Virus record (IMG/VR): IMGVR_UViG_3300022562_000399
Origin: a virus
Taxonomy: Duplodnaviria; Heunggongvirae; Uroviricota; Caudoviricetes
Reading direction: 5' to 3' (one strand)
DNA length: 64,000 nucleotides
The notes beneath the pieces were generated by a model. The model had not been told where the DNA came from, made no database searches, and was given only the letters and a program-made list of their open reading frames with translations. Position numbers and translations under genes: made by a program. Shown here in pieces: positions 7,063-35,443 of the stretch (the first letter of the stretch is position 1; every line of letters starts with the position of its first letter).

Positions 7063-9368
7063 GCCGCTAGTTTCACCTCTTCCAGTTCGCCCCAGCTTGG
7101 CCCCGCCTCGAAGTCCACCGGGAACTTCAACGCTGGGGAGTACCCGAACACCTTCTCGATGGGCCGGTTCTCGCAGATCTCTTTGACGGCCAGGAGTATC
7201 CACGGCAAGTCCTCGGTCTTGGCGATGCCGGTGACACTGTCATGTGTCATTGCTACCAGCCCAGCCTCCGGGACCTCCTCCTCGATCTCCGCGATGGACC
7301 ACAGCATGAGGTCAGACAGCATCGACTGCACTGGGGAGTTGATCGCTTGCCGTTCAGCTTGGTGCTTCAATGCGTCGTCGCGCGAGTTGATCAGGGGCAG
7401 GTGACGGATGCGTCCCAACGGAGACTCGATCTGGTGCCGCTCTCGCGCGTAAGACAGCACGCGCTCGTACCACGGGTTCAAGTCGGGGTACGTGTCGAAG
7501 AACAACTCACGCTCGTGCCTGGCCATGGCCATCGTGATCTTCTGGCCCCAGGTACTCCAGCAGTACACGACGAAGCCGCCCGCGCTCATGCGGTAGACGA
7601 ACCCGAAGTTGGCGGCTTTGGCGCCGGATCGCGCCGCACTGTACTTGCCGGGGTCGGACTCCTTCAACAGCATGAACTCGGGCAGGGGCATCCCGATGCG
7701 GGCCGCCGCAGTCTTGGCGTGCAGGCTCATGCCCTGGTTGTAGGCTTCGAGCATTGCCCGCTCGTGCGCGAGCGTTGCAACTATGCGCAGTTCACCCTCA
7801 CTGTAGTCCACCTGCCAATACGAGTAGCCCTCGGGTGCCGTGTAGCACTTGCGCAACCTCTTCGCGATGGGCCCGTGCTTGGGTAGCGTCTGCATCGCGG
7901 GCGCCGTGCACGCGAGGCGTCCGGTCACCGTGCCGCGCTTCTTGTCGTCGTGCACGCCAACGCCGGAGAACAGCATGTACGAGGGATGGAACAGTCCGTC
8001 CTGCCGAAGGTGAGACAGGAACCCGTCGATGTAGGTGGACCTCGCCTTGGAGATCTTCGAGATCTTGCCCATGGCCTGGGCGAAGGGGCCACCAACCGGA
8101 TGCGTCTCGAACATGTCGAGATGTTCCTTGCTGGTCTTCGGCTCCTGCTTCTTCTCGGTCAGCAGCACAGGCTTCAAGTTGAGGCCCAGAGGTGTGAACA
8201 GAAAGTCTCGCAACAGAGCTGGACGCGACAGGCTCAAGTCGTCGGCGTACTTGGCTTTGATCCTCGGGGTGAGCATTGCCAGGGCTTCCTGCTCGGCCGC
8301 ATTCTCTTCCTTCACCAACTCGGATCGCAACTTGGCGAACGCCTCGACGTTCACCGGGATGCCGCGCGCCTCCATCTTCGCGAAGGCGATCTGGGCGGGG
8401 TGCAGAATGTGTTGGTAGAACTTGGTCAGCTTCGAGTGCTTGACCAACTCCGCGCGCATGTGCTGGGCCACGCGGAAGCAGGCGTCCGTGTCGCCGCCGA
8501 TGTACGGCAGCATCTCGTCCTTCGGCACCTTCTCCATGTGTGCCTTGTCGTGCTTCTCGTTGAACTCGTCGTCGTAGCCGCCGATGGGAGTGTAGAGCTT
8601 GGCGTGCAGGTTAAGATTGTTCGGTCGGTTCTCGTTCAGCAGAGACCCGATCAGCGTGGTGTCCAACGTATAGTTGGTGCACGACAATCCCCACTTGATC
8701 CGCAACCAGTTCAAGTCAAAGCCGCCGAAGTTGGCGCCCCAGAGCTTGACCTTGGGGCTGTTCAGCAACCAGTCGATCTCCTCCAACTGCTCGTGCGTTG
8801 GGCCCTCGGGGTAGGTGTAGATCACGTGCGACTCACCAGGCTTCACGGTCACGCCGATGCACACGATCTGGGCGCCGGGATCTTGCGGCACCACTCCCAT
8901 GGTCTCCAAGTCCAGCACCGTGGGCACGCGCACCGTCCACGACTGGATGTAGTCGATGATCTCTCCGAAGGAGTCCACGTACTTGTACGCGCCGACCTCC
9001 GGGGTCAGCTTGCCGGTCATTTCCGCACGCAGGGCCAGCCGCACGTCCCAGCGGATCTCGTCCAGCTTCGAGGGGTCAGCGGCTATCGAGCCGGGGGAGT
9101 AGGTGCACAGGAACTTGTGGCCCCCCTCGCCCAACGTCAGCTTGCCACGCAGAGAAGTGACCGTGCGGTTCTTGGGGTACACGCCCAAGTTCTGCAACAC
9201 CTTCAAGGGGTCGCCACCCATCGACAGCAGCACACCGTTGCCTGGGTCGGGGATCGACCCCTGACCAACGCGCCACAGCTTCACAGGCGGGCGTCCTGGG
9301 GTGGAGTCCAACACCGGACCCACCGCGCGCACAACTTTCTCTCGGTCCCCTTGGTAGTAGATCAGCAC
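7059..9368 (-). CDS. DNA polymerase I family A with 3'-5' proofreading exonuclease (T7-like DNAP)
   Basis: Exonuclease motifs LDLETMG, GANFGGFDLNWL and YIGGDTDA. Polymerase motifs TGRLACTAPAMQTLP, motif A VDYSEGELRIVATLA, motif B KAANFGFVYRMS and motif C VAMTHDSV. Confidence 0.9.
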   Translation of the reverse strand: MLIYYQGDREKVVRAVGPVLDSTPGRPPVKLWRVGQGSIPDPGNGVLLSMGGDPLKVLQNLGVYPKNRTVTSLRGKLTLGEGGHKFLCTYSPGSIAADPSKLDEIRWDVRLALRAEMTGKLTPEVGAYKYVDSFGEIIDYIQSWTVRVPTVLDLETMGVVPQDPGAQIVCIGVTVKPGESHVIYTYPEGPTHEQLEEIDWLLNSPKVKLWGANFGGFDLNWLRIKWGLSCTNYTLDTTLIGSLLNENRPNNLNLHAKLYTPIGGYDDEFNEKHDKAHMEKVPKDEMLPYIGGDTDACFRVAQHMRAELVKHSKLTKFYQHILHPAQIAFAKMEARGIPVNVEAFAKLRSELVKEENAAEQEALAMLTPRIKAKYADDLSLSRPALLRDFLFTPLGLNLKPVLLTEKKQEPKTSKEHLDMFETHPVGGPFAQAMGKISKISKARSTYIDGFLSHLRQDGLFHPSYMLFSGVGVHDDKKRGTVTGRLACTAPAMQTLPKHGPIAKRLRKCYTAPEGYSYWQVDYSEGELRIVATLAHERAMLEAYNQGMSLHAKTAAARIGMPLPEFMLLKESDPGKYSAARSGAKAANFGFVYRMSAGGFVVYCWSTWGQKITMAMARHERELFFDTYPDLNPWYERVLSYARERHQIESPLGRIRHLPLINSRDDALKHQAERQAINSPVQSMLSDLMLWSIAEIEEEVPEAGLVAMTHDSVTGIAKTEDLPWILLAVKEICENRPIEKVFGYSPALKFPVDFEAGPSWGELEEVKLAA

Positions 9369-9995: not shown

Positions 9996-10814
9996 TTACG
10001 CTCCATGGCTCGCGAAGTCCTCCACGTGAGGCACCGCCGTGTGAATCCCCGTGCACAGGGCCGCGACCAATCCACCGATCACCTTGTTGGCCATCACCTT
10101 GTTGTCCACCTGCACGTGCATCGAACAGTAGCCCTTGTTGAGATGGTTCTGGTTCAAGGTGAAGCCCACGTCTACAAGCTTCGGCAGGCCGTCTTCCAAC
10201 GCCGCTCCCTCAACTCGAATGCTCACCTTGTTGCCAAGGTATCGCGCCGCGACCACCAACCCGTCCGCCATACCCACCACGTGGTAGACGCTATCCTCGC
10301 TGGTGCCTGCCACCGCCTGGTAGAGATGGGCAGCATCCGCCGCCTTTACCTTGGGCCCGGTCTTAACCACTCCCTCCTCCACCTTCAACGCGGTGTCAGT
10401 AATCGTGCCGTGCTTGGTGCCGGTGACCGACTTCTTCACTGCTTTGGTGTGGTAGGGGACCCAGTTCTTTTCGGGCTCCGACGTGGCCACCATGACCACC
10501 GCAGGCTTCTTGGCCGAAACGTCTACACCACCCAAGCCCAGCGGATCGGCCGCTGCCTTGTGGCCGTGGAAGGACGCCACGTAGTCGATGGCCTCGACCA
10601 GCTTCTTCTTGAGCGTAGCGCAGACCAGAGTGCTCGCGTTGCCGTCGATCACGGACTTCACCGTATCGAACTTCACCGACACCTTGTGGGTCGTCGTCGT
10701 GCCTTCCTGGCCAACCACGATCTCGTTCTGGCCCACCGTCAGACGGACGTACTCGTCGAACTCTATCCCAAGAGCCGACAACAGAGCACCCGTCTTGATC
10801 TTGTAGGAAATCAT
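9996..10814 (-). CDS. Possible sliding-clamp-like protein (gp45/DnaN-like N-terminus)
   Basis: N-terminus MISYKIKTGALLSALGIEFDEY resembles clamp N-termini (T4 gp45 MKLSKDTTALLKNFATI, DnaN MKFTVEREHLLKPL). The call rests on this weak similarity only. Confidence 0.25.
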   Translation of the reverse strand: MISYKIKTGALLSALGIEFDEYVRLTVGQNEIVVGQEGTTTTHKVSVKFDTVKSVIDGNASTLVCATLKKKLVEAIDYVASFHGHKAAADPLGLGGVDVSAKKPAVVMVATSEPEKNWVPYHTKAVKKSVTGTKHGTITDTALKVEEGVVKTGPKVKAADAAHLYQAVAGTSEDSVYHVVGMADGLVVAARYLGNKVSIRVEGAALEDGLPKLVDVGFTLNQNHLNKGYCSMHVQVDNKVMANKVIGGLVAALCTGIHTAVPHVEDFASHGA

Positions 10815-11598: not shown

Positions 11599-11614
11599 TT
11601 GCAACTATCTTCAC
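11599..11614. repeat. 16-mer variant TTGCAACTATCTTCAC adjacent to a promoter
   Basis: 10-mer core GCAACTATCT. Confidence 0.45.
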
Positions 11615-12513
11615 TTCTCCCAGATCTGGTTGCCGTCGGGGCTCGGGTGCACCGTAGCCGTGGACACGGAGGGGGCCTTCTCCTTGATCAGGAAGCCCTT
11701 GGACGTGCGCACGTAGCCCCTCGGCGGGGGCTCCTGGGCGTCGGCCAGGTAGGGCTTCGTGATGGGCTCTCCGGGCAACTGAGGCAGCCCCTCGTTCAAG
11801 GGCTTCCACCGCTCGAACTCGTCCTGGTAGCCGGTCCAGTGCCGGTCGTGGTTGCCCCAGTGCTCGCCGTGGCCGCGCCCCTTGTACGACCTCGTGCTGG
11901 GGGATGCCGCCTTGCAGGCGTACCGCTCGACCAGGAACGCGATCTGTTCCTTGGTCTCGACCGCGTGCTTGCAGTAGTTCTCGCGCACATACTTGATCGG
12001 GTCGGGGTCGATCTCCAGGACCGACACCAGCGCCGCCAACAACATGCCCGTGCGACCGTGTCCGCCGATGCAGCCAACGTGCACGGCTCGTCCTTCTTGG
12101 ATCTCTCCGACCAGCCACAGCACCATCCGGTGGAATGATTTGGGGTCACTCGGCTTGTGCCCGTCCGTGATCTCGTACTTCACGCGCGTGGGTCCAGACT
12201 TCGGTGGCTCCCATGGCCATGGTGCGTCCGCTTGCATCCAGCGGTCCAGCCCCACGTACACGTCACACCCATCGAACACTGGGTCCGAACACGAGCCGCC
12301 GAACAGGTGGCGCCCGTTGCCAAGGGGGAGGGGCCGGTGCGTGTACGCACACTTGGAACTCGACAGCTTGCGACCCAGCGCGTGGACCACGCGCCCAGAG
12401 TACCAACTGCCCACCTGCAACGAGGACAACGCCCCGCGCTTCTCTTCTCTCACTGCCGCGAGGCTCACGACCTCGGCGCCCAGCTTCTTGCTCTTGCCTT
12501 TGTGCTTGCTCAC
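11611..12513 (-). CDS. Cys-based protein phosphatase (PTP/dual-specificity fold, CX5R)
   Basis: Active-site P-loop VHVGCIGGHGRTGMLLAAL. GTG start with AAGGAG RBS just after the upstream TAG. The first ~100 aa of the listed ORF is a junk extension. Confidence 0.6.
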   Translation of the reverse strand: MSKHKGKSKKLGAEVVSLAAVREEKRGALSSLQVGSWYSGRVVHALGRKLSSSKCAYTHRPLPLGNGRHLFGGSCSDPVFDGCDVYVGLDRWMQADAPWPWEPPKSGPTRVKYEITDGHKPSDPKSFHRMVLWLVGEIQEGRAVHVGCIGGHGRTGMLLAALVSVLEIDPDPIKYVRENYCKHAVETKEQIAFLVERYACKAASPSTRSYKGRGHGEHWGNHDRHWTGYQDEFERWKPLNEGLPQLPGEPITKPYLADAQEPPPRGYVRTSKGFLIKEKAPSVSTATVHPSPDGNQIWEK

Positions 12514-12521
12514 TCCTTCTC

Positions 12522-13625
12522 CTACGCCGCCATCGCAGCGGCCGGGACGTACTTCCCGTCCTCGGTTCTCACGAACTTCTTCACGTACACACCAGGCGCC
12601 ATCTCGTAAAACCCGGCCTTGTTCTCCTTCGCCATCTTCACGGTCTTCTCGATCTCGGTGGCTTCCGGTCCGCCCAGCTTCTTGGCGTAGGGAGTGGCGA
12701 GTCCGTAGGTCTTCGCCTGCAACTTCTTCTCCGCCTCGTAGTGTCCGTTGACCGCACCAAGCGCAGTGACTTTGTACCAGTCCACGTACTCGCCGAACCT
12801 CACCCACGGCAACCACTTCTTGACGGTCTCCAGCACGAGCCCCATGCCAATCGTTCCGTGGGTGTTGCCGGTCCCCGCAATGTACTCGGGGATCTGGCCC
12901 GACCTCTGCACGTCCAGGATGCGCCCTAGCTCGTGGGTGTAGCCACCGAAGAACAACCCCTTGTTGAAGATCGGCCCGTTGTTGTGGGCCAAGGTGAACG
13001 CGGTGTCCACCATGTTCTCCAGGCTCGCTTCACCTCTCAGCACTCGCGCCAAGCACGTGGTGATCTTGCCCCAGGGCTTGCCTCCGAAGCCCCCGGAGAA
13101 CGACCCGTGGAAGAAGCCCCACTCGATGGCACCGAAGAACTGCGCCACGGTGCAGGCTGGGGGGTTGTTCATCGTCTTCGAGTAACCAGCCTCCTCGCTC
13201 CCGCCCTTCAACGAGATCACGTGATCAGTCGCTTCGTTGCCGAACTGCTTCCGCATCTTCTCGGCTCCACTGCTACCAAGCGACATGTGCCGGATCTCAC
13301 GGATCGTGATGTAGCACAGGTAGTGGAACATGCGGAGGGCCGAAGCACTGCCGATCTCGTGGAACGAGTTGACGGCCGAAGCCGCCCCTGGGTCCAGAGG
13401 CTCGTGCTTGTCGTACCGCCTCACCACTTCGCCCAGCACGTGCTGCACCAAGTAGAACTTGACGGCCTCCAACTCCGGGCTAGGGTCGCCCTTCAAGTTC
13501 GCCCTGGCCTCCTTCGCCTGGGCTGCCCAATCCACCATCGACGAGGAGCCAAGGTCGCGAACGACCGTCAGCGGTCTCGCTCCTATCTGGTACGCCAGCG
13601 TGTCATGGGATGCGATCAGTGACAT
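12522..13625 (-). CDS. Hypothetical 367-aa protein with a Gly-rich motif
   Basis: Clean ATG with AAGGAGG RBS. Motif FSGGFGGKPWGKITTCLARVLRGE. No recognised catalytic signature. Sits between the two phosphatase paralogs. Confidence 0.45.
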   Translation of the reverse strand: MSLIASHDTLAYQIGARPLTVVRDLGSSSMVDWAAQAKEARANLKGDPSPELEAVKFYLVQHVLGEVVRRYDKHEPLDPGAASAVNSFHEIGSASALRMFHYLCYITIREIRHMSLGSSGAEKMRKQFGNEATDHVISLKGGSEEAGYSKTMNNPPACTVAQFFGAIEWGFFHGSFSGGFGGKPWGKITTCLARVLRGEASLENMVDTAFTLAHNNGPIFNKGLFFGGYTHELGRILDVQRSGQIPEYIAGTGNTHGTIGMGLVLETVKKWLPWVRFGEYVDWYKVTALGAVNGHYEAEKKLQAKTYGLATPYAKKLGGPEATEIEKTVKMAKENKAGFYEMAPGVYVKKFVRTEDGKYVPAAAMAA

Positions 13626-13660
13626 GGTGCCTCCTTGCGTTCACGTCTCAGTACACCTTG

Positions 13661-13689
13661 AAAGTACACCCGCCCGTCGGTTGTGTCAA
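13661..13689 (-). promoter_or_regulatory. Promoter: TTGACA-N17-TACTTT
   Basis: taggggTTGACAcaaccgacgggcgggtgTACTTTcaaggtgtactgag. Confidence 0.55.
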
Positions 13690-14165
13690 CCCCTAGCTGA
13701 AAAGAACTTGGCCCACAGCCGCTCGGCTCCGTAGTAGATCCGCAGCCAGAACACGGGGAAGGTCGCCACGAACCGCTCCTGCTCGTTCGTCTCCACGGCC
13801 TCCACACGGTAGTTCTGGCGCACGAAGTCGATGGCCTTGGGTCCGTTCAGGCCCTCAGTCACTCGTGCCACCAGGGCCAACAGCGTGCCCGTACGACCCC
13901 ACCCGAACCCGCACCCGACGTAGACCTTGTGGCCGTAGATCAGGGACCGCAGGACGAACCGCACAGCCTCCTTCACGGCCTCCAGATCCGTGGGCACTCC
14001 GAAGTCCGGCCAGTCCACCGTGAGGTTGGCAGGTCGCTTGTTGTTGGCCGCCAGGTTGACTCCCAGGTGGGTGGTCGGCTTGTCAAGATACGGACCGGCC
14101 AGGATCTCGCCTCCGGACGTTTCCATGGGGGTGGCACACGGGGCGCCTTTCAGATAGCTCTTCAT
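13686..14165 (-). CDS. Cys-based protein phosphatase paralog (CX5R)
   Basis: VYVGCGFGWGRTGTLLALV. The downstream segment IDFVRQNYRVEAVETNEQERF parallels IKYVRENYCKHAVETKEQIAF in the first phosphatase. ATGA overlap with the upstream gene. Confidence 0.6.
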   Translation of the reverse strand: MKSYLKGAPCATPMETSGGEILAGPYLDKPTTHLGVNLAANNKRPANLTVDWPDFGVPTDLEAVKEAVRFVLRSLIYGHKVYVGCGFGWGRTGTLLALVARVTEGLNGPKAIDFVRQNYRVEAVETNEQERFVATFPVFWLRIYYGAERLWAKFFSARG

Positions 14166-16359: not shown

Positions 16360-16393
16360 TCTCAGTATGCTCACAAATCGCGAGCCGTGTCAA
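16360..16393 (-). promoter_or_regulatory. Promoter-like: TTGACA ... (CA)TACTGA upstream of the PPDK-like gene
   Basis: agagggcTTGACAcggctcgcgatttgtgagcaTACTGAgaccg. Confidence 0.4.
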
Positions 16394-16681: not shown

Positions 16682-18586
16682 CTACTTCGTGGGTGGTCCC
16701 AGGAAGAGGGCTCCGGAGTCGTCCACCACGACCTCGATCACGGTCTCCTCCGGGCACGATCCCAGGTGGACCGCGATGTCCGGCATGGCCACCGGCAGGT
16801 AGGCACCACCCCCCAGGGCCGTCCACACCGCGATGGTGTCGCGCCCCTCCAACTCCTTCAACACGAGGGTCGGGCTCAAGTACATGGTGCCAGGCTTCGA
16901 CTTCTTTGGCATGGGGGGCACTGGTGCCTGTGTGGCCCCCTCCAGCCCGATCACATCCAGGAGGTTCTTGTCCATCTTCGCCAGCTTTTCAATGGCGTGG
17001 TGATGGATCTCCTGTAAGGCGTCGTGATTCACCGTGACACTGGCCAGCGGGGACTTCCCGAACTGGTTGGGGAAGTACGAGTCCTTGCTTTTGAAGAAGG
17101 CCATCTTCTCCAGGTGAGCCTTGCAGATCTGGTGCCATGACTCCTGGTGCGTAACCACTTTCTTCGGTGGGCCCAGGTCGCCCAACGTCGGCATGGACTG
17201 TAGGTCGGAGATGTGCTCGATCTCCTCCACGTCAGCAGGCCACCCTGGGCAGTGCTGGTAGTCGCACGTCAACCCGTGCTTGTAGCCTTTGGGCCCGAAC
17301 TCCGGTGGTGAGTACGCGCCGTCTGGGTAGGTCTTGATCAAGTACGCGAAGAACCCCGCCCAGGCCTTGCCGTAATGGAGGTGGCACAGGAAGTGGAACT
17401 GGGAAAGGTTGAACCGAATTTCGTGGTGGTGCCCTGTCTCCTTGTCGTGTTGGTGCAGAGTGTAGAACGACGACGAGGCGTCCCGCGTCAGGTGGTACGT
17501 CACGGACTCGCACTCCAACAGCGCGGGAGTTTTGACACTACTGTCCACCACCATCGAGAACTTCGGGTTGATCACGTACGGGTCGGACTTCTTCCCCAAC
17601 GCCTTAATGTACTGCTCGGGCTTCTTCGACTTCGCCGCCATCATGACCGCGTGGTTGACACAGACGATATGAAAATTGGGATTGTCGGCCGACATGCCAA
17701 GCACTGGTGGAAACCCTGGGCACGATGGAGCCTTGCACTTCTTCGAGTCCTTCGAGATTCCCCCGCTGGGCATGATGGTGCACACAAACGAGAAGAAGTC
17801 GAAGTCGTCGGCCAAGTACATCGTCTCGTGCAGATAGTGCAACTGCTCTTTGGTCACCGCGATCTCGTGCGGTTCGGCCTTCTGGTAGTTCTCGATCTTG
17901 TAGGAGTTGTAGATCGGGTTGTGGGTGATCTTGAAGACCTCCACTCCGTGCTGCCACACGCTACTCGGAATCGTCCACGCCTTGGGTCCAAACGAGGGCC
18001 ACAGCTTCTTCTTCATGTTCACGACCGTGTGCTCCATTGCGCAGAAGTGATGGACTCCCGCGTCGATGTCTTCCGCGAACCCGGCACCCAGGTGATAGTG
18101 CGGCCACCCTGGGCAGTTCTGATACAGACACCCCGCGCCCTCGACGAAGGACACGAGGGGGGCCGGGTGATTCGTGGCCATGTGGTTGGGCGGCCCCATC
18201 GTTGGGTGGTCGGGGTAGTTCTCGAACAGCCACCGCGCGAAGGCGATGTTGGTGTGGCTACTCATGGGAGACGTGGGGCCAAACAAGGCGGCCTTGGCAA
18301 TCATCCCCACTTGCGCGCATTGCGGCTCCGTCAGGACCAGCGAACGAGGCGCGAACTTCTTCGACTTCGACCTCCGCGTGATCATCGTGACCATGTTCGC
18401 GATGTCTTTCTCGAACTCGTAGATCACGTCGTCCTCGTCCGGCGCCCCGATGATCAACTCCTTGCTTGCTGGCTCGTACGCCTTCATGAAGGCGCCGAAC
18501 GACAGGTCCGTGTTCTGCACAGACTTTGACAGGGAGTCGAGGCCCCACCCCATGTTGTTCAGGGACTCCGTGAGCTTCTTGGCCAT
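16682..18586 (-). CDS. Large His/Cys-rich hypothetical protein with three CPG(W/F)P repeats
   Basis: Repeats LYQNCPGWPHYHLG, KAPSCPGFPPVLG and DYQHCPGWPADVEEIEH. Many His clusters (HHHEIRF, HHHAIEK). Trimmed to the ATG at 18586, which lies after the upstream TAA. Confidence 0.45.
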   Translation of the reverse strand: MAKKLTESLNNMGWGLDSLSKSVQNTDLSFGAFMKAYEPASKELIIGAPDEDDVIYEFEKDIANMVTMITRRSKSKKFAPRSLVLTEPQCAQVGMIAKAALFGPTSPMSSHTNIAFARWLFENYPDHPTMGPPNHMATNHPAPLVSFVEGAGCLYQNCPGWPHYHLGAGFAEDIDAGVHHFCAMEHTVVNMKKKLWPSFGPKAWTIPSSVWQHGVEVFKITHNPIYNSYKIENYQKAEPHEIAVTKEQLHYLHETMYLADDFDFFSFVCTIMPSGGISKDSKKCKAPSCPGFPPVLGMSADNPNFHIVCVNHAVMMAAKSKKPEQYIKALGKKSDPYVINPKFSMVVDSSVKTPALLECESVTYHLTRDASSSFYTLHQHDKETGHHHEIRFNLSQFHFLCHLHYGKAWAGFFAYLIKTYPDGAYSPPEFGPKGYKHGLTCDYQHCPGWPADVEEIEHISDLQSMPTLGDLGPPKKVVTHQESWHQICKAHLEKMAFFKSKDSYFPNQFGKSPLASVTVNHDALQEIHHHAIEKLAKMDKNLLDVIGLEGATQAPVPPMPKKSKPGTMYLSPTLVLKELEGRDTIAVWTALGGGAYLPVAMPDIAVHLGSCPEETVIEVVVDDSGALFLGPPTK

Positions 18587-18602
18587 CTTTTGGGCCGTCT
18601 TC

Positions 18603-18857
18603 TTATCGGGTAGTGCCACACTCCGCCTCCAACTCTCGCGCCAAGTTCTCCATCTCGATCTCCGCCTTGGCAATGGACTTCAACACTTCCCACCTCGACC
18701 GCCGATCCTCGCCTGTCAGGATGCGGAAGCAGTGCGTGCAGAACCAGATGATCTCTCGGTCCCACAGGTCCCGAAGAATGCCGATCTTGCGGCGACTCTT
18801 GTCCTCTCCGCAGAGGCAGCACTCCGGAGCCAGGGTCTCATGGAAGCAGCTTGACAC
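18603..18857 (-). CDS. Small Cys-rich (zinc-finger-like) protein
   Basis: CCLCGEDK...CTHC pattern. Confidence 0.3.
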   Translation of the reverse strand: MSSCFHETLAPECCLCGEDKSRRKIGILRDLWDREIIWFCTHCFRILTGEDRRSRWEVLKSIAKAEIEMENLARELEAECGTTR

Positions 18858-20117: not shown

Positions 20118-20834
20118 TCAGACCGATGCCGTTGCAAGGCGACCCTCCTGTAGCAATCCCCACACGGTCGGGCACCAGTGCTGGAGAATGTCGTTCTCGA
20201 TCACCCGAGCGTACTCGCGAATCTCTGCTTGAGCGTGGGAGTCGTTGCGTAGCTCCAGGAAGTGCAGCAGGTTGCGCAGGTCCGTCTTCCAGTACCAACT
20301 CGTGTACAAGTTCAGGCCCAGGGCCAGGCGGGCAGTCTCGCGCGACACCCCACGCTCCAGCCACTTGTCGTAGACCTTTAGCTGCTGCTCGCACAGCAGG
20401 GTCAGATCCGTGGCGAACTCCTTGGCCTCCCAGATCGGCAGCTTCTCCGCGCTGCCCTGCTTGTTCTTCTTGTCCTGGTATCGCACCAGGTCGGGCGCCG
20501 GGATGTAGAAATCGCGACACGCCTCCGAGTAGCGCAGTGACTCCTCGTTCACGCTCGCCGTGCGGTGTCGTATCCACTGCCGCGCCACGAAGATCGGCAG
20601 CTTCACGTGTAGCGTGATCTCAGCCATCTCGAAGGGAGACATGTGCTTGTTGCGATACAGGTACGCCACCAGCTTGTCGTCTTCCCTCTTCGTCCTCGTG
20701 CCCGACCCGTAGGACACGCGCGCAGCCTGCACGATGCTCGACTCGTCGCCCATCACATTGACGACGCGCAGAAGCCCGTGATCTAACACCCCCCACACAG
20801 CAGACCGCCAGTGTCCACCCATGGGGGAGACCAT
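20118..20834 (-). CDS. thyX: Flavin-dependent thymidylate synthase ThyX
   Basis: ThyX signature RHRTASVNEESLRY. Trimmed to MVSPMGG. The upstream part of the listed ORF is a junk extension. Confidence 0.85.
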   Translation of the reverse strand: MVSPMGGHWRSAVWGVLDHGLLRVVNVMGDESSIVQAARVSYGSGTRTKREDDKLVAYLYRNKHMSPFEMAEITLHVKLPIFVARQWIRHRTASVNEESLRYSEACRDFYIPAPDLVRYQDKKNKQGSAEKLPIWEAKEFATDLTLLCEQQLKVYDKWLERGVSRETARLALGLNLYTSWYWKTDLRNLLHFLELRNDSHAQAEIREYARVIENDILQHWCPTVWGLLQEGRLATASV

Positions 20835-20851
20835 CCCGTCCGGAGGCAGCG

Positions 20852-21334
20852 TCACGCCAAGACCTCCGCCCTCTGCTCGCGCGTTTTGTGGAGGAGTTTG
20901 AGGTAACGCCGGGCCGCCTTCTCTCGGGTTCTCATGGTGATCTCCGCCCGTACTTCTCGCCGCCACTTGTACAGGTCTTCGCTCCACGCCTTCCAGGACT
21001 TGCCGAACTCGATGGCGAACTTGCCCCACCAGTTGCATCTCGGGATGCCGTACTCCGTGGCTATCTTCTCGATCAAGGGCACGTTCGGCTCCTCCCACGC
21101 GAACGCCTCCACCATGGGATAGGGCGTGCCGGTCAGGAAGGCGTAGGCCAGCAGGTGGGCTCTCACCATTGGCCTGTAGTGGCCGTCCACCATCGCCTGT
21201 CTTCGGCGTCTCCGATCCTCCGTCTTGGCCTTGCCGACGAGGGCCTTGGCTTCGGCCAACTCCACCATCAGTCCCTTGATCCGCAGCTTCAACTGCGGCA
21301 GCTTCTCGACCTTGCGGCCATCCAATCTAGTCAT
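20852..21334 (-). CDS. Hypothetical protein
   Basis: ORF abutting thyX. Confidence 0.35.
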   Translation of the reverse strand: MTRLDGRKVEKLPQLKLRIKGLMVELAEAKALVGKAKTEDRRRRRQAMVDGHYRPMVRAHLLAYAFLTGTPYPMVEAFAWEEPNVPLIEKIATEYGIPRCNWWGKFAIEFGKSWKAWSEDLYKWRREVRAEITMRTREKAARRYLKLLHKTREQRAEVLA

Positions 21335-21857: not shown

Positions 21858-22174
21858 GCCGCTGCCTTTGCCTCCTTCGCCTTCGCCTTGGCTGCTTCCT
21901 TCAACTCGGCCACGATCTCCGGGAGCATGTCGAAGTACACTTCCTCGGCCGTCTCCGTGGTCACCGCGTAGCCCCTAGTGTTCAGGTGGTGGACCTTCAC
22001 GTCGTACAGGTCGGGGCCCGGCCTGTAGATGATGTCCACGTTGAACACGTGGTAGCGGTTGGCCGTGTGAAGGCGGAGCGTGTTGGCGTCTACGGCGTAG
22101 AGCTTCACGCCTCTGCCCGTCATGCCCATGGCCTTGACTTGGGCCGCGATTGTCTTGACTGTGTTGGTGATCAT
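21854..22174 (-). CDS. Hypothetical protein
   Basis: ORF downstream of the promoter at 22208-22236. Confidence 0.3.
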   Translation of the reverse strand: MITNTVKTIAAQVKAMGMTGRGVKLYAVDANTLRLHTANRYHVFNVDIIYRPGPDLYDVKVHHLNTRGYAVTTETAEEVYFDMLPEIVAELKEAAKAKAKEAKAAA

Positions 22175-22207: not shown

Positions 22208-22236
22208 AGCCTACGCCTCCCGCGCTGCCATGTCAA
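22208..22236 (-). promoter_or_regulatory. Promoter: TTGACA-N17-TAGGCT
   Basis: gacgcTTGACAtggcagcgcgggaggcgTAGGCTcaaagtgg. Confidence 0.5.
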
Positions 22237-22826
22237 GCGTCCTCGGTCAGGAACCGCACCGCCTGGTTCAGGAGTCCCCACGCGGTGGTGCCTCGGTCTG
22301 CCTCGGGGGTCTTCCGCATGGCGTCCCGCATCCCGTCCACGACCATGTGCGCCAGGAAGGGCACCTTGTTCACATCGTAGATCATGAACCACCACCAGTC
22401 CGCGTTCCAGCTTCGAGCCGCCGTCCCCAGCAGCCGGGACAGGGCGTCCTTGTACCGGCGAGCCAGCCCCACCGACAAGGTCGCGCTGCGGTTGACGTAG
22501 TTGTCGTAGAGATCGACCAGCTTGACCAGGGTGGCCGCTCGGAACAGTCCGATGCGCTCGATGTAGGATTGGTAGGTCTCCACCTTGGGGTCACGACTCA
22601 CGAGCCGCACCAGGTCGATGGTCTGCGCCTTGAAGTGGGACGCCCACAGCAACCCCTCGGACATGAACCCGTCCTCCATCATGTCGTGCAGGTAGCCTGC
22701 CGCCACGATCTCCTCGGGCACTCCCATCACCGCGAGCCAGTCGCCCACGCGCACGGGATGCGACTCCAACCCGTACCACTCCACCGCCAGTTCTCGTGCC
22801 TCTCCCGCCTTGGTCTTCTTGGTCAT
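22233..22826 (-). CDS. HD-domain phosphohydrolase-like protein
   Basis: H...HD pattern (HPVRVGDW ... AAGYLHDMMED). Confidence 0.45.
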   Translation of the reverse strand: MTKKTKAGEARELAVEWYGLESHPVRVGDWLAVMGVPEEIVAAGYLHDMMEDGFMSEGLLWASHFKAQTIDLVRLVSRDPKVETYQSYIERIGLFRAATLVKLVDLYDNYVNRSATLSVGLARRYKDALSRLLGTAARSWNADWWWFMIYDVNKVPFLAHMVVDGMRDAMRKTPEADRGTTAWGLLNQAVRFLTEDA

Positions 22827-24636: not shown

Positions 24637-26547
24637 TTAGCGAACAACCTGGAGCCTGGCCTCTCCGGGAGTCCCGTGGCCCCTCTCCTCTTGCTGGTAG
24701 TTGGACGCCTTCTTGGCCTCTGCTCTCTTGGTCAACCACTCCGGGATCTTCGACGTGGGGATGCCAGCACGGCGCCAGATCTCCCTCTGCATGTGCAGGC
24801 CGAAGCACACCCCAGCCAAGGCATCAGCGCAGTCCTTCGAGCCGTGGGGTGGGTGGTCGATCATGCCCTTCTTCGGCTCGCGCTCCAGCATCACCAACTC
24901 CTTCAAGACGAACTCGTGCTTGGGGGCGATGATGCGACCGTCGTAGAACGCTTGCTTGGTGACCTCGTAACCGTCGGTGGTCTTGTCCAGGGACACGGTG
25001 CCCACGCGGAAGCCTTGGGCCTTCAACATCTGCATGGAGTCCTTGCTCTGGTAGGTATCGAAGGACACCCACCGGATGTCCACGAACTCACGGACTCCGT
25101 ACAACACGCGCCGGATGTTCTCGAACTGGATCTCGCCGGACGGAGGTGGCTTCACCTGGAGGATGAAGTCGTACTGGATGATCGGCAGGATCTCCACCGC
25201 CTGGTCTCTCCGGACGTTCATCCACCCAGCCACGTGGCCCATGGCGACGCCCGCAGAGTCAGACGACACGGCCAGGTCGATGTGCACGTAGCGCGGCGCC
25301 TGGGGGTTGCAGATCTTGCCGGTCAGCAGTTGCAATTGTGTGCGCTCGAAGTCCACGTCCTCCCTGCTCAGTATCGACTCGACCTTGCCGAAGGAGTCGG
25401 CCACCTTGTCGGTGTTCATCATGAACGGGTGCATCGACTGCGTGGCCACGCCACCGATGTCGCGCAGAGCGTTCAGCAGATCGTTCTCGAACTGGTGGTA
25501 GAACTCAATGGGGACCGACAGCACCATGTCTGGGTTGCTCTCGGTGTCGTCGTCTTTCAGGATGCGAGGCTTGCGGTTCTCGTTGCCGATGAAGACGTGG
25601 AAGCGTTGCGTGCCGAAGGCATCCGGCTTCACATCCCACAGCCTCTTGTTGTACACGAAGATGCGGGCACCTGGCTTGTGTGCTTCTGCGATCTTCTGGT
25701 CCGTGAACTGGCCGGGGTAGTTGGCCGAAGACACCAGGCACAGCATCCCTGGCATGTTGCCCTTGTCCATGAACCTCGACTCTCGGCGCCGTGCGATGGA
25801 GTTGTAGAGCGCCTTGGCTTGGTCGAACTCGTTGTTTTCCCCGCGTGCCTTCTTCGAGTCCTTGACGATGGCCATGAAGTTCATCTCGTCCAGGATGCCC
25901 CCGATCACGTTCTGGCCGATGGCGCCCGTGGCGTCGCCAGACACAGGCTTGACGACGATGCGGTTGGGGAAGCGTAGCTCCGACGTTATGGTGGGGTCGT
26001 AGATGAAGTTCTTCTGGAACCATTGGCAGCGGTCGATGATCGCCTTGAATCGCGTGTAATCAACCGCCTTCGCGAGCGATGCCGAGATGCTTTGGAAGAT
26101 CACCATGATCTCGGAGGTGGGGTCCAGGCCCATCTCGTCGTGCGGGCTCTCCATGCACCCCAGCTTGTATAGCTCGTACGCTTGCGCGTACAGGGCGATG
26201 GTCGTCTTGGCTGTACCGATGCCGCCCGTCAGCACCGCCTCGATGTACTTGCCCGACGTGATCTCCTCGATGGCCTCCATGACGGCTGGCCAGATCGCGC
26301 CCTTCTGGTGCAAGAACACGTCCGACTCGATGAACTCTCGCGGGTGCACAGGCTCGCACCTGTAGACCGGCTGGTGGATGGCGTTGGCCCACAGGTTCCC
26401 CAGTCTCTCGATGGCTTCGAGGCGACTACAGTTGGCGACCTCGTCGGGCCATGGGCAGAGGTTGTCTCGGTAGTAGGACCAATCCTCGTCACTCAGGATC
26501 TTGAGGGCGTCCAGTTCTTTAGGCGTCGGTACTCTCACCGCTATCAA
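24637..26547 (-). CDS. Terminase large subunit
   Basis: Walker A VLTGGIGTAKTT and Walker B ILDEMNFM. C-terminal RNase-H-like nuclease region (HIDLAVSSDSAGVAMGH). Confidence 0.9.
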   Translation of the reverse strand: MIAVRVPTPKELDALKILSDEDWSYYRDNLCPWPDEVANCSRLEAIERLGNLWANAIHQPVYRCEPVHPREFIESDVFLHQKGAIWPAVMEAIEEITSGKYIEAVLTGGIGTAKTTIALYAQAYELYKLGCMESPHDEMGLDPTSEIMVIFQSISASLAKAVDYTRFKAIIDRCQWFQKNFIYDPTITSELRFPNRIVVKPVSGDATGAIGQNVIGGILDEMNFMAIVKDSKKARGENNEFDQAKALYNSIARRRESRFMDKGNMPGMLCLVSSANYPGQFTDQKIAEAHKPGARIFVYNKRLWDVKPDAFGTQRFHVFIGNENRKPRILKDDDTESNPDMVLSVPIEFYHQFENDLLNALRDIGGVATQSMHPFMMNTDKVADSFGKVESILSREDVDFERTQLQLLTGKICNPQAPRYVHIDLAVSSDSAGVAMGHVAGWMNVRRDQAVEILPIIQYDFILQVKPPPSGEIQFENIRRVLYGVREFVDIRWVSFDTYQSKDSMQMLKAQGFRVGTVSLDKTTDGYEVTKQAFYDGRIIAPKHEFVLKELVMLEREPKKGMIDHPPHGSKDCADALAGVCFGLHMQREIWRRAGIPTSKIPEWLTKRAEAKKASNYQQEERGHGTPGEARLQVVR

Positions 26548-27787: not shown

Positions 27788-28050
27788 TCCTGGCCTCCTG
27801 TTAGCCCTACCTTCAAGGTGGGCTCGTTATTCTCGTCCGTGAACTCCAACTCCGGCTTCGGCACCAGCAACCGGGCCACCTCGTCTTCGAGGGCCGCACC
27901 CAGTGGCATCTTGCACCGAAGGAGCACGCCCCCCACGTCGAAGTTCTGCACCGTGCACCGCTCCGTCAAGATCAGCTTGGGGTGCATCGAGTCAGGCCGC
28001 ATCATAGTGCAGCCAGCCAACAGCAACAGCGCGAGGGGCAGTATCTTCAC
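27784..28050 (-). CDS. Lipoprotein
   Basis: GTG start with AAGGAG RBS. Lipobox LLLLAGC. GTGA overlap with the upstream gene. Confidence 0.45.
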   Translation of the reverse strand: MKILPLALLLLAGCTMMRPDSMHPKLILTERCTVQNFDVGGVLLRCKMPLGAALEDEVARLLVPKPELEFTDENNEPTLKVGLTGGQE

Positions 28051-28670
28051 TTCTTCCAAGTCTCCTTGATCCGCTGCGCCGCCTTGCCTGGTGACGGTCG
28101 GTCGTCTTTCAGCATCCCGATCTGCTGGGAGTCCATGAGGATCAGCAGACACGCAGCCGCGTGGGCCAGGTGGTGCACGTCTGAGTCCTCCGCGTTCTCT
28201 TCCCGCGAGTCGAACCATGCGTCGATGTGCCTCTTGGTTGCCGACACGTAGATGCTGCCCTGCACCCCGATCTCCCGCCAGTTGTAGGGGCCGTACTTGC
28301 TCGCGCCGTTGCGCATAGCTTCGGCCACGTCCACCATGGGGCCAGCCGGGATCAGGTGCATGGGGGCCTTGCCCATGCCGATCAAGTCCTTCGGGTTGAC
28401 GCCCTCGGGGTTGCTCTGCTTGCGGTCTGTCTCGCCTTGGTACAGGGGCCGCTCACCTGGCTGCGGCACCACGTAGGTGCGAGGCTCGCCGGGCCGCTTG
28501 GCCAACGACTCCAGCGCACGCTGGGCCGATGCCGCCGATGGGAATAGCTCACACAGTCGTTCGCCCAACCGCGTAACGTAGTCCGCTTGCTGTTGCTCTT
28601 CTGCCGTCGTTGGAGCGTCGTGATTTTCCACCACCCGCAGCCCCGTGCCGTCTATCATCTCTCCCGCCAT
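28047..28670 (-). CDS. MazG-like / dATP-dGTP diphosphohydrolase-like protein (tentative)
   Basis: Motifs KYGPYNWRE, RHIDAWF and HLAHAAACLLILMD resemble the phage dGTP_diPhyd N-terminal domain. Confidence 0.35.
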   Translation of the reverse strand: MAGEMIDGTGLRVVENHDAPTTAEEQQQADYVTRLGERLCELFPSAASAQRALESLAKRPGEPRTYVVPQPGERPLYQGETDRKQSNPEGVNPKDLIGMGKAPMHLIPAGPMVDVAEAMRNGASKYGPYNWREIGVQGSIYVSATKRHIDAWFDSREENAEDSDVHHLAHAAACLLILMDSQQIGMLKDDRPSPGKAAQRIKETWKK

Positions 28671-32900: not shown

Positions 32901-33404
32901 CTACACCAGGTGGCGCCCCAGCACCTTGACGATCACGTCCAGCCCGTCCCCCAGGGTGGGAGCCATGAAGCTGGCCAACTCCGTGATGAAGGGGTGCGTA
33001 GCGTGAGGGCTGTCTGGAGGGCAGACCACCACCATGGGCACCTTGGCCTCATGCGCCACGCCCATCTCGACGAAGGTCCCGATGGAGGGCTTGACCATGT
33101 TGGCCATGTACACCAGCAGCATGTCGCAGCGCCGCACGTCGAACAGGTCACGCCCGACGATGGCCTTGCCACAGGACATGATCTTGTCCTCGTAGCGATG
33201 CCCCAGCGCCTCCTCTTCGCACAGGTACTCCTTGCCGCGCAGAGGTGACACGCAGTCGATCTGGTGCTCTCGAAGTCGCTGGTGCGCCAGCACCCTCCAC
33301 TCCGTTGCCTCTGCCCACGACAGTCCAGTGATGGGCCCCGCCAGATACACGCTCCCGTTGCCCAGGGGAACCGCTCGGTACTTGTTCGCCATGGTGTCCC
33401 CCAT
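32901..33404 (-). CDS. Nucleoside 2-deoxyribosyltransferase-like protein
   Basis: SVYLAGPITG and GTFVEMGVAHEAKVPMVVVC match the Nuc_deoxyrib_tr fold. The N-terminal part of the listed ORF is junk. Confidence 0.5.
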   Translation of the reverse strand: MGDTMANKYRAVPLGNGSVYLAGPITGLSWAEATEWRVLAHQRLREHQIDCVSPLRGKEYLCEEEALGHRYEDKIMSCGKAIVGRDLFDVRRCDMLLVYMANMVKPSIGTFVEMGVAHEAKVPMVVVCPPDSPHATHPFITELASFMAPTLGDGLDVIVKVLGRHLV

Positions 33405-33814
33405 CAGTGGGTCGCCAACTCGTGGCCGTTCCAGCCTGCCGCCGCACAGCCGAAGGCACCCGTGATGGTGAACAGCGTGCGCCGCATCTTGTGTGTGGGG
33501 ACCACGTAGCCCACCCCGCCGATCAGGCCGGTCAGCGCCGCCTTGATCCCGAAAATGGCCGGGCCGTTGTCGGGCAGCATGGGGTTCAGTTCGTGACCGC
33601 CTTGCTCCAGGATCGCGAACGTGGTGGCGCCGTCCGCCATCTGACACGCTGCCATTCCGGAGAAGAACATCCAATCCGTCTTGTCCCAGGGCTCGCGCAC
33701 GCCCGCCTCTTCTTGGGCCCGCAGCTTCGCGGCCTGTTGGCCAGAACATCCACCCCAAGCGGTGAAGGCCGCCATGATCAGGCAGGCCAGTGCAACTATC
33801 TGCAATCTCTTCAT
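33404..33814 (-). CDS. Lipoprotein
   Basis: MKRLQIVALACLIMAAFTAWGGCSG signal and lipobox. Confidence 0.4.
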   Translation of the reverse strand: MKRLQIVALACLIMAAFTAWGGCSGQQAAKLRAQEEAGVREPWDKTDWMFFSGMAACQMADGATTFAILEQGGHELNPMLPDNGPAIFGIKAALTGLIGGVGYVVPTHKMRRTLFTITGAFGCAAAGWNGHELATH

Positions 33815-34122: not shown

Positions 34123-34655
34123 CCACGCCCCCCGAACGGTGCCCCGTTCTCACGCAGGATCTCGGCGTTCTGCCACTCGATCAGGCCGCGCTCGATCTCG
34201 TCCATCAGGTTCAGCAGTTGGCGGTCACACTCTCGGATCGCTGCCTGCCGCTCGCTCTCCGCGATCTGCTCGTCGTGGACCTTCTGGGAGAAGACTCGCC
34301 GCACGCCCTCGACCAACTCCACCGACTGCCCCGTGACGATGGCCGAGAAGTGTGGATGCTCGCAGGTGTCCAAGAACTCCATGAGCGGAGCCGCGTGTGC
34401 TCGCAACGCCAGCATCTCTGGGGGCAGATCCTTCAACGCCTCGTCCTTGTAGGTGATGACGGTCTTGGTCGGAGGTTCCGCAACGCACGCCCGGATCTGT
34501 AGGCGCAGGTCTTCGTTCCCTGCTACAGCCTCCAGAAGGGAGTCCGCTACCTGCTCTCGAAGGCGCCTCACCTCGTAGTGGACCGCCCACATGATCAGTA
34601 GCAGAGCCACCCCAACCAACGCGCTCACCAACACCAGTTGATCTAGTCCGTGCAT
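34119..34655 (-). CDS. TM protein
   Basis: MHGLDQLVLVSALVGVALLLIMWAV... Confidence 0.35.
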   Translation of the reverse strand: MHGLDQLVLVSALVGVALLLIMWAVHYEVRRLREQVADSLLEAVAGNEDLRLQIRACVAEPPTKTVITYKDEALKDLPPEMLALRAHAAPLMEFLDTCEHPHFSAIVTGQSVELVEGVRRVFSQKVHDEQIAESERQAAIRECDRQLLNLMDEIERGLIEWQNAEILRENGAPFGGRG

Positions 34656-35443
34656 CACTTCTTCTCCTTCTTCGGCAGGATCACCCGCTCGATCCTTGTC
34701 ACGATGTCGTTCAGTCCATCTCGGCACTGGTCGCCCAGGTTCAGGTTGCGCAAGATCCAACACACGCTCTCCCTGACTTCGCCCAGGACCGTCTTGGCTT
34801 GCATGTCACGCTCAATCTCGGTCAGTTCCATGGGCGTCTTCGTGGCCAGGTCCAGGATCGCGCTCAGGGCCTCACTCGTCCCAGGCATCATGGTGGTGTG
34901 CCGCAGAGCCCACACGGCCTTCGCTCCTACCGCCCGCAGGCGTTTGGCCACCTCCATGTCAGGGTGGGGGAAGATGCCGACGAAGTCCTCCGCCGTGCCG
35001 CTCGTCCAGCCGGGCTTCCAGTGGGGCTGGTGCAGCCGCAACTTCTCCGGGGTGGGGAACGTGCCGGTGAACCGGAACCCCCGGTCGTCGATGTACACGT
35101 CCACGTGTGGCTTGACCGCCGTGATCTCCAGCGAGTTGGCGATGTCGAACGCTTCGGACGAGTCCTCCAAGTGATTCATCAGGGCATGGAACATCCACCG
35201 ACGAATCGCCTGTTGCCCTTCCTCGGTCTCCCCACGGCACGAGTGGATCACCACACGCCTGCACTTCCGTCGGTACAGCAGGAAAGCCTCCACGGCTCCC
35301 GGCAAGGGGCCGTTCATGGTATCGTCCCCCGGTCCGTTCCAGCCATGGAACTCGTGAAGCACGCCGTCGAAGTCCAGCGCGATCTCCAGGTCTTCAATCT
35401 TCTTAGTCTCGCTCACTGTCTTCCTTGTCGTCCATCTTGACAT
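34655..35443 (-). CDS. HAD-superfamily hydrolase (5'(3')-deoxyribonucleotidase or PNK-phosphatase-like)
   Basis: Motif I IALDFDGVL. Later VYIDDR acidic motif. Confidence 0.45.
   Translation of the reverse strand: MSRWTTRKTVSETKKIEDLEIALDFDGVLHEFHGWNGPGDDTMNGPLPGAVEAFLLYRRKCRRVVIHSCRGETEEGQQAIRRWMFHALMNHLEDSSEAFDIANSLEITAVKPHVDVYIDDRGFRFTGTFPTPEKLRLHQPHWKPGWTSGTAEDFVGIFPHPDMEVAKRLRAVGAKAVWALRHTTMMPGTSEALSAILDLATKTPMELTEIERDMQAKTVLGEVRESVCWILRNLNLGDQCRDGLNDIVTRIERVILPKKEKK

Follow-up and report, generated by a model that had tools for sequence, protein, structure and literature searches.

We analyzed a 64,000-nt stretch of viral DNA (Caudoviricetes; IMG/VR record IMGVR_UViG_3300022562_000399), referred to below as the window, and in it a group of genes that encode a PPDK-like phosphotransferase, a CsrA-like protein, a 367-amino-acid (aa) protein and, on either side of the latter, two putative Cys-phosphatases, PTP-B and PTP-A. 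The window encodes portal, large-terminase-like, RecA, DnaB, primase, helicase and family-A polymerase proteins, which mark it as phage DNA. Nearly all of its genuine genes lie on the minus strand, with a G+C content at third codon positions (GC3) of ~0.85. No near-identical DNA among GenBank phages was matched in a nucleotide search with the window; the exact 367-aa and PPDK-like proteins are also encoded on a 103,161-bp metagenomic contig. The minus-strand order is PPDK-like, CsrA-like, PTP-B, 367-aa, PTP-A, small open reading frames (ORFs), 272-aa, PolA and portal. A preliminary description of the locus had singled out positions 11611-14165, which run exactly from the PTP-A stop to the PTP-B ATG on the minus strand, as two paralogous CX5R phosphatases that flank a 367-aa protein directly upstream of the PPDK-like gene. 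Our analysis confirmed the two paralogues and the protein between them. The last detail had to be corrected: on the minus strand the cassette lies downstream of the PPDK-like gene, and the 88-aa CsrA-like gene stands between them.

Proteins of the cassette

PTP-A and PTP-B gave a BLASTP match of 37% identity over 89 aa (E=5e-13), and hhalign aligned their profiles with a probability of 99.7% (E=1.5e-26). Both match phrog_17568 (~1e-25 and ~1e-26). When the orthologue profiles were compared with solved structures, the closest relatives of both were Tk-PTP, SsoPTP and DUSP23/VHZ; against Tk-PTP (5z59) the E values were 1.6e-12 for PTP-A and 1.9e-10 for PTP-B. PTP-B matches Pfam Y_phosphatase with 25.0 bits (cut-off 20.9), and PTP-A alone stays under the Pfam cut-offs (20.2 vs 27).

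The P-loop reads VYVGCGFGWGRTG in PTP-B (C85-R91; C85GFGWGR91T) and VHVGCIGGHGRTG in PTP-A (C148-R154; C148IGGHGR154T), letter for letter as quoted in the preliminary description. Homologues conserve the motif: CX5R(T)G is kept in 74 of 75 PTP-B orthologues and in 79 of 79 PTP-A orthologues. The consensus HCxxGxxR that had been given for both genes does not apply, since the residue before the nucleophilic Cys is Gly in both and in every orthologue (G-C-X5-R-T-G); position -3 from the Cys is His in PTP-A and Tyr in PTP-B. The general-acid Asp, D54 in PTP-B (WPDFGVP) and D117 in PTP-A (ITDGHKP), lies 31 residues before the Cys in both proteins, and both general-acid loops align with the IPDF loop of Tk-PTP. 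The E-T/S-x-x-Q loop (E125-T126-x-x-Q129 in PTP-B) is invariant within each phosphatase group. In the alignments D54, C85, R91, T92, E125, T126 and Q129 do not vary among PTP-B orthologues, nor does the equivalent set in PTP-A. PTP-A and PTP-B are true paralogues within the Cys-phosphatase superfamily; their catalytic residues are all in place, and both are apparently active. They are themselves new members of a known superfamily.

A duplication had been proposed from a block shared by the two genes, VRxNY...AVETxEQ. The paralogy is real and ancient, but the block is family-wide; it is also present in Tk-PTP and is by itself no proof of a recent duplication. In a neighbor-joining tree of 152 catalytic cores the A and B groups split cleanly, with zero nearest-neighbor mismatches, which places the duplication before the radiation of the phage lineage and suggests that each copy has its own conserved role. 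The idea that the pair might be a single frameshifted gene fails, as two complete domains are separated by a conserved 1.1-kb gene.

PTP-A is the better conserved copy and is retained in all loci. Its N-terminal 50 aa are poorly conserved; its catalytic domain carries extra invariant Cys and His residues (C6, H10, H96 and C132 in the numbering of alignment A3) that are lacking in PTP-B. A linker of ~70-100 aa, variable across orthologues, precedes a C-terminal peptide of the form P..(S/G)...[IVL]W(G), here HPSPDGNQIW. The C-terminal [IVL]W motif was found in 57 of 71 PTP-A orthologues vs. 8 of 68 PTP-B orthologues, and the peptide looks like a docking motif for a partner. A membrane-anchoring amphipathic tail on PTP-B was considered and rejected: the helical moment of the window protein is 0.54, yet the orthologue median is 0.39, similar to that of PTP-A (0.37).

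The 367-aa protein is the best conserved of the cassette set. Among 52 sequences at ~35% identity, 27 columns are invariant, mostly polar or glycine (the main motifs are listed in Table 1); R109, R112, H113, H214, N215, N221, K222, D238, Q240 and R241 are among the invariant residues. Its AlphaFold2 model is confident (pLDDT 89.7, pTM 0.81) and consists of alpha helices, apart from a small beta hairpin at the C-terminus. An exhaustive profile search returned 2,262 cluster representatives, and the best 150 of these were all family members of the same length, with no fusions or remote relatives. A BFVD fold search with the model gave members of its own family and nothing else, the profile found nothing among PDB sequences, and no NCBIfam match was obtained. 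Pfam searches of the 52 members at E up to 1 gave no shared family, only isolated matches of one or two members to unrelated families. Neither by sequence nor by fold was a match obtained in the PDB. The model and these searches point to a large family with an apparently new fold. In phage records the gene is labeled 'putative membrane protein'.

The PPDK-like protein matches PF01326 (ATP-grasp, 4.9e-47) and PF00391 (swiveling phospho-His domain, 4.4e-24) and is ~45% identical to bacterial PPDK over ~420 aa. It aligns to residues 1-506 of Clostridium symbiosum PPDK (E=2e-88), where the alignment ends; the ATP-grasp domain is supported by alignment to 1kbl and 9pzl. The catalytic His motif is kept, with GGATSH382AAVVAR aligned to GGMTSH455AAVVAR. 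The phosphoenolpyruvate (PEP)/pyruvate TIM barrel, PF02896, was not matched in this protein or in its phage-type homologues, whereas the 880-aa genuine PPDKs from the same list match it. The C-terminus is instead a fast-evolving, reduced TIM-like domain of 213 aa with 15-32% identity among orthologues, in which one polar residue, D92, is near-invariant and no Arg/Cys/Glu set is conserved. A single, capped search with this domain alone returned no homologues. In NCBIfam the protein scores under both equivalog cut-offs, so that the curated PPDK models are not reached, and is matched weakly by the RPH, PigC and RedH models.

Since its PEP/pyruvate domain is degenerate, the protein cannot perform the PPDK reaction. 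Its domain content indicates a PPDK derivative that would retain the ATP to His~P chemistry and lack the pyruvate/PEP half-reaction; it is not a true PPDK. Such proteins have been treated as glycolytic auxiliary metabolic genes (PMC12038007, PMC9229204, PMC10141217). If our analysis holds, this 'PPDK' cannot make PEP and the glycolytic reading falls; the label used in the literature is doubtful.

Operon structure and conservation in phages and prophages

The string of genes from PPDK-like to PolA (Table 1) is, by its spacing and signals, a predicted tightly packed minus-strand operon. The CsrA-like gene is translationally coupled to PTP-B through the ATGA overlap. For PTP-A, a mechanically listed ORF of 401 aa would overlap the 367-aa gene. 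Both promoter-like matches have perfect TTGACA -35 boxes and lie in two short intergenic gaps; the number of such matches in the window is no higher than in shuffled controls, so their placement alone is suggestive. No terminator-like site was found on the minus strand from 16329 to 9600.

In a tblastn search of isolate phages the 367-aa protein was found in 40 and the PTPs in 28. The carriers were Rhodobacter phage RcZahn, Stenotrophomonas phages DLP3, DLP5 and Summit, Rhizobium phages RHph_TM16 and Y1_11, and many SIO-2/VHS1-like Vibrio siphophages; in RcZahn and Summit, whose regions are annotated, the genes follow the same order. We assembled 82 loci, i.e., 80 IMG/VR loci around 367-aa homologues plus RcZahn and Summit, and their ORFs were called and classified by BLAST. 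The order PPDK-like, (CsrA-like), PTP-B, 367-aa, PTP-A, (272-aa), PolA was seen in nearly all of the 82 and in ~90 phage and prophage loci overall. PolA lies downstream in 71 of the 72 loci with enough flank. The PPDK-like gene is present in all loci with at least 4.5 kb upstream (62/62). This linkage fits the functional cassette that the preliminary description had proposed around its 'PPDK-like' neighbor, although with its degenerate PEP/pyruvate domain that neighbor is not a PPDK.

Loci from bacterial genomes and metagenome-assembled genomes (MAGs), including a Roseococcus prophage, showed the layout in nine of ten cases, the tenth being cut by an integrase insertion. A cassette in a non-phage context was looked for and rejected, as all 10 bacterial-genome loci have the same prophage layout. 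The gene order is kept down to 30-40% protein identity and across hosts as different as Vibrio, Rhodobacter and one MAG each of the Helicobacteraceae and Acidobacteriaceae. From these comparisons the putative operon is a constant element in a large lineage of siphophages and prophages of roughly 80-105 kb, which includes Delepquintavirus, RcZahn, the Rhizobium TM16-like phages and the SIO-2/VHS1-like Vibrio phages.

No publication that treats the cassette genes as a unit was found. The gene in the PTP-A position is annotated 'thymidylate synthase' in DLP3, DLP5 and RefSeq SIO-2 and 'transporter' in Virtus, LV6 and V-YDF132; from the ORF numbering, ORF102 of Vibrio phage J26, labeled 'pyruvate decarboxylase', appears to be the same gene. 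Every sampled member of this widespread lineage, which comprises phages from soil, sea and aquaculture and therapy candidates against Stenotrophomonas and Vibrio, carries the operon; its annotation is piecemeal and often wrong.

Table 1. Positions of the cassette genes, their motifs and neighboring features in the window.
Feature	Position	Strand	Remarks
Promoter-like match, second	16678-16650	-	Upstream of a 78-aa ORF
Promoter-like match, sigma-70-like	16364..16393	-	TTGACA-18-CATACT, immediately upstream of the PPDK-like start
PPDK-like phosphotransferase, 632 aa	14431..16329	-	ATP-grasp and phospho-His swivel (GGATSH, His382 at 15186-15184); degenerate 213-aa TIM-like C-terminus
CsrA-like protein, 88 aa	14162..14428	-	Start 2 nt past the PPDK-like stop
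PTP-B, putative Cys-phosphatase, 159 aa	13686..14165	-	ATG overlaps the CsrA-like stop (ATGA)
PTP-B general-acid Asp, D54	14006-14004	-
PTP-B P-loop, C85-T92	13913-13890	-
367-aa protein, phrog_20946	12522..13625	-	AAGGAGG precedes, in the 60-nt spacer after PTP-B
367-aa motif (T)RE(S)RH	13304-13287	-
367-aa motif GG(Y/F)GGKxWG	13094-13068	-
367-aa motif HNNGPIFNKG	12986-12957	-
367-aa motif ILDVQRSGQ	12920-12894	-
367-aa motif YVDWY	12788-12774	-
PTP-A, putative Cys-phosphatase, ~300 aa	11611..12513	-	Likeliest start GTG 12513, AGGAG 5 nt upstream
PTP-A general-acid Asp, D117	12165-12163	-
PTP-A P-loop, C148-T155	12072-12049	-
PTP-A C-terminal third	11611-11910	-	Ends in the IW peptide
272-aa protein, phrog_25950	9996..10814	-	Between PTP-A and PolA
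PolA, family-A DNA polymerase	7059..9368	-	3' end of the gene string
Portal gene	5876-3693	-	After PolA

PolA and the whole cassette interrupt the packaging/structural module, sitting between the large-terminase-like and portal genes (3693-9368 and 24637-26547, minus strand). The same terminase/cassette/portal layout is found in RcZahn, Virtus and the Roseococcus prophage. PADLOC, Rfam and tRNA scans were all empty.

The CsrA-like protein matches Pfam CsrA through its C-terminal beta-strands and helix (4.8e-06, 26.9 bits vs. a cut-off of 27) and TIGR00202 weakly (1.4e-4, 22 bits vs. 70). Its N-terminus is CsrA-like by eye, and the two CsrA segments are split by an insertion of ~35 aa. The gene was found by BLAST in 14 related loci, and CsrA has also been recorded in Vibrio phage J26. 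The 272-aa gene occupies the same position in 65 of the 82 loci, and its product has no PDB or Pfam match. It is absent in at least one Vibrio-phage relative, Virtus, in which the gene in the PTP-A position is followed directly by PolA.

Just upstream of the cassette, a 663-aa ORF (16682-18673, minus strand) contains three Cys/His repeats (CPGWPHYH...HHFC..EH, CPGFP...H.VC.NH and CPGWP...H..C..H); searches of Pfam, PHROG, NCBIfam and PADLOC gave no match for it, and none of the related loci has a homologue. Nucleotide-metabolism-like genes lie farther away on the same strand (20118-21098, 22233-22826, 28047-28670, 32901-33758 and 34655-35443). This set comprises ThyX, an HD-domain protein, a weak HAD_SAK_2 match, a dATP/dGTP diphosphohydrolase N-terminal domain with a 90-aa N-terminus of no assigned family, and a nucleoside 2-deoxyribosyltransferase-like domain with a 135-aa N-terminal extension. 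In the listed ORF the ThyX domain spans residues 111-311, and translation therefore probably starts farther downstream. In the Roseococcus pinisoli prophage (L083), the PPDK-like gene is preceded at a distance of a few kb by WbqC-like and PIG-L (sugar deacetylase) genes (2532-3927), and an Acb1-like (anti-CBASS) gene follows the portal region (22027-22121). DLP3 carries PIG-L, WcaG, WecE, a glycosyltransferase and UDP-glucose 4-epimerase (L085).

Possible functions and the question of DNA modification

Enzymes of the PEPS/PPDK family phosphorylate hydroxyl or enol oxygens of varied acceptors through His~P; rifampin phosphotransferase, glucan water dikinase, phenylphosphate synthase and PigC/RedH, which act on prodigiosin precursors, are of this kind. 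Given such a range of acceptors, the likeliest activity of the phage enzyme is to phosphorylate a hydroxyl of a substrate that is held in trans. Our best reading of the cassette, which we hold tentatively, is a coupled module in which ATP charges the His and a substrate hydroxyl is phosphorylated and dephosphorylated. The PPDK-like protein would run the first half-reaction of the family (ATP to enzyme-His382~P, AMP and Pi or PPi) and, as its own acceptor domain is degenerate, would pass the phosphoryl group to the substrate hydroxyl in trans. The best candidate for an acceptor-presenting or catalytic subunit would be the 367-aa protein, which is strongly conserved and rich in Arg, His, Lys and Asn. 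The two PTPs would hydrolyze the phosphomonoester(s), either to free the final product in a synthase/phosphatase style or to reset the system. PTP-A would be the indispensable phosphatase, tethered to a partner via its C-terminal P..S...IW peptide. The substrate would be a phosphomonoester and not a phosphoanhydride, and from the constant adjacency of PolA our leading guess is a nucleotide- or nucleic-acid-linked target.

Several observations weigh against the coupled module. The degenerate TIM-like domain might bind a small acceptor on its own, and no nucleotide- or phosphate-binding fold is recognizable in the 367-aa protein. A kinase and two phosphatases acting on one substrate look futile unless the intermediates differ. 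PTP-B is missing in three loci (L038 1339-1382, L039 3055-3098 and L072 904-2058), in two of which the 367-aa gene starts 43 nt after the PPDK-like gene; it is dispensable in some members, and PTP-A is retained in all three. Fusion proteins, re-assortment of the cassette into other contexts and evidence of direct interaction were not found. Finally, every locus comes from a single lineage whose genome layout is conserved, and the synteny may partly reflect descent.

This last point also favors independent functions linked by descent, a reading that we consider somewhat unlikely. The PTPs would then be protein phosphatases of host takeover or anti-defense that strip Tyr, Ser or Thr phosphates off host regulators or kinase-based defenses, the PPDK-like protein would have a metabolic or ATP/AMP-handling role, and the 367-aa protein would be unrelated to either. 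The closest relatives of the PTPs are indeed protein-tyrosine and dual-specificity phosphatases, PTP-B has a WPD-like WPDFGVP loop, and each gene has been handled as a separate auxiliary gene in the literature (PMC12038007). Independent functions agree less well with a gene order that survives 30-40% protein identity and diverse hosts, with the translational packing of the genes, and with an anciently split paralogue pair that brackets one and the same gene. The PPDK-like protein is also unable to run the PPDK reaction, and no PADLOC family was matched. A precedent for the role of the PTPs is a study of the T7 kinase, in which phage-encoded protein phosphorylation reportedly serves as a broad counter-defense.

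We regard as unlikely a more specific pathway in which the pyruvate-domain-less PPDK is a general phosphohistidine donor, the 367-aa protein is an enzyme that employs this phosphate on a nucleotide-, nucleic-acid- or replisome-linked substrate, and the PTPs process the phosphorylated intermediates.

Hypermodification of DNA or nucleotides was downgraded from the lead hypothesis after palindromes and restriction sites had been counted, and is now considered improbable. The dikinase would activate a base or sugar hydroxyl, the 367-aa protein would substitute the phosphate and the PTPs would trim intermediates, resulting in restriction-resistant DNA. The model for such hydroxyl activation is 5-HMUDK, which phosphorylates 5-hydroxymethyldeoxyuridine (5-hmdU). 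The constant adjacency to PolA is consistent with a role of this kind, and the window encodes ThyX, an all-alpha NTP-PPase domain, a nucleoside deoxyribosyltransferase-like domain and an HD domain. The restriction resistance of two Stenotrophomonas phages also speaks for it: DLP3 DNA was reported to be uncut by 15 of 15 restriction enzymes (PMC7326821), and DLP5 DNA to be cut by only 4 of 36 (PMC5834331). However, of these 15 enzymes, 10 have no site at all in the DLP3 genome (L084 and L085) and XbaI has one. The inference of modified DNA rests mainly on the sites reported as uncut for SmaI (68), ClaI (18), EcoRI (7) and NdeI (4). Among these phages, DLP5 has been reported to encode a SAM methyltransferase and Vibrio phage J26 an adenine DNA methyltransferase, and ordinary methylation could account for the remaining DLP3 resistance.

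The window itself is without 31 of the 64 six-base palindromes. Observed (expected) counts were 0 (24) for CTCGAG and for GCCGGC, 0 (21) for CTGCAG and for TTCGAA, 0 (20) for GGATCC, 1 (33) for CGATCG and 1 (27) for GTCGAC; TGGCCA, GGCGCC and CGCGCG are at or above expectation. CTAG is the sole depleted 4-bp palindrome. Across 83 related loci the median observed/expected ratio of 6-bp palindromes was 0.64. Such avoidance marks DNA as exposed to type II enzymes and not globally protected, and it argues against hypermodification. Furthermore, no member of the 367-aa family has a Pfam match to aGPT-Pplase or another described hypermodification family, and the known pathways are not known to need phosphatases. 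Literature on 5-hydroxycytosine in Acinetobacter phage DLP3 and on deoxyuridine-containing (dU) DNA was considered and set aside as irrelevant here.

Nucleic-acid end chemistry is decidedly improbable. In that scheme the PTPs would strip 3'- or 5'-phosphates for RNA repair or host mRNA destabilization, the dikinase would take the part of a polynucleotide kinase, an unconventional one, and RNA binding would be supplied by the CsrA-like protein. Both PTPs match Pfam Tc-R-P as well as PTP-SAK, the 'Swiss Army Knife' RNA-repair phosphatase family (2.9e-5 and 6.7e-4), the operon includes a CsrA-like gene of RNA-binding type, and a weak HAD_SAK_2 match occurs elsewhere in the window. The PTP-SAK scores are, however, below the gathering cut-off, the cassette has no ligase, Pnkp or RtcB-type partner, and the nearest solved relatives are protein PTPs. 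The preliminary description had also allowed for RNA 5'-phosphatases. The invariant general-acid Asp, a typical feature of phosphomonoesterases, points to ester rather than anhydride substrates and disfavors RNA 5'-triphosphatase activity, and with either profile no BVP, PIR1 or capping-enzyme chain was among the 60 best solved relatives listed.

A relay from His to Cys as in the phosphotransferase system (PTS), with His382~P phosphorylating the P-loop Cys of a PTP that then serves as carrier or transferase to a substrate on the 367-aa protein, is very improbable: the swivel His domain has its homologue in PTS enzyme I, the lost cis acceptor domain calls for a trans acceptor and VHZ-type PTPs show phosphotransfer to alcohols, but the invariant Gln of E-T-x-x-Q and the general-acid Asp are requirements of a hydrolase, HPr- or EIIA-like genes are absent and PTP-fold carriers have no known precedent.

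If the analysis holds, the PPDK-like protein, two active-looking phosphatases and a large new-fold family form a concrete four-protein system for biochemistry, and the 'heavily modified DNA' of Delepquintavirus would largely reflect missing restriction sites, so that a misleading clue falls away. Should the coupled mechanism prove right, the dikinase family would gain a new class of acceptor, and a family with thousands of members would gain a function. If the general-donor pathway is true, a new phosphoryl-activation chemistry would serve phage DNA replication or nucleic-acid modification.

Comparison with known systems

Like Tk-PTP (5z59), SsoPTP (2i6i) and human DUSP23/VHZ (4erc), the phage PTPs have a single catalytic domain of ~150 aa with the order D-loop Asp, C-X5-R-(S/T)-G P-loop and A-V-E-T-x-x-Q loop. 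Unlike in these enzymes, the nucleophilic Cys is preceded by Gly and not by His, PTP-A has in addition the invariant Cys/His residues, the long linker and the C-terminal IW peptide, and both sit in a fixed phage operon. The PPDK-like protein shares the ATP-grasp domain, the swiveling phospho-His domain and GG(M/A)TSHAAVVAR with PPDK (EC 2.7.9.1) and with truncated PPDK-like proteins (NCBIfam NF004531/PRK05878); it differs in that the PF02896 domain is replaced by the reduced TIM-like domain.

Thymidine hypermodification modules (5-HMUDK with aGPT-Pplase) resemble the cassette in the logic of phosphorylating and then substituting a hydroxyl and in their location among replication genes. Their kinase belongs to a different superfamily, the 367-aa family has no counterpart there by Pfam, and site avoidance in the phage DNA stands against global hypermodification.

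The nearest functional analogy is starch metabolism, where PTP-fold phosphatases remove phosphate that a dikinase has placed on a glucan hydroxyl. Glucan water dikinase and SEX4, LSF2 or laforin are, like the phage proteins, a dikinase paired with PTP-fold phosphatases. In contrast to that pair, no carbohydrate-binding or other acceptor-binding domain was found in Pfam scans of the phage proteins (for carbohydrate-binding modules, none among matches with E up to 0.1 in the PPDK-like protein, PTP-A and PTP-B). The domain order also differs from that of the glucan, rifampin, phenylphosphate and PigC/RedH enzymes, and the acceptor would be presented by a separate protein of new fold. Beside PolA, the combination of a PPDK that has lost a domain, a protein of new fold and two ancient PTP paralogues is a new variation on the dikinase/phosphatase theme.

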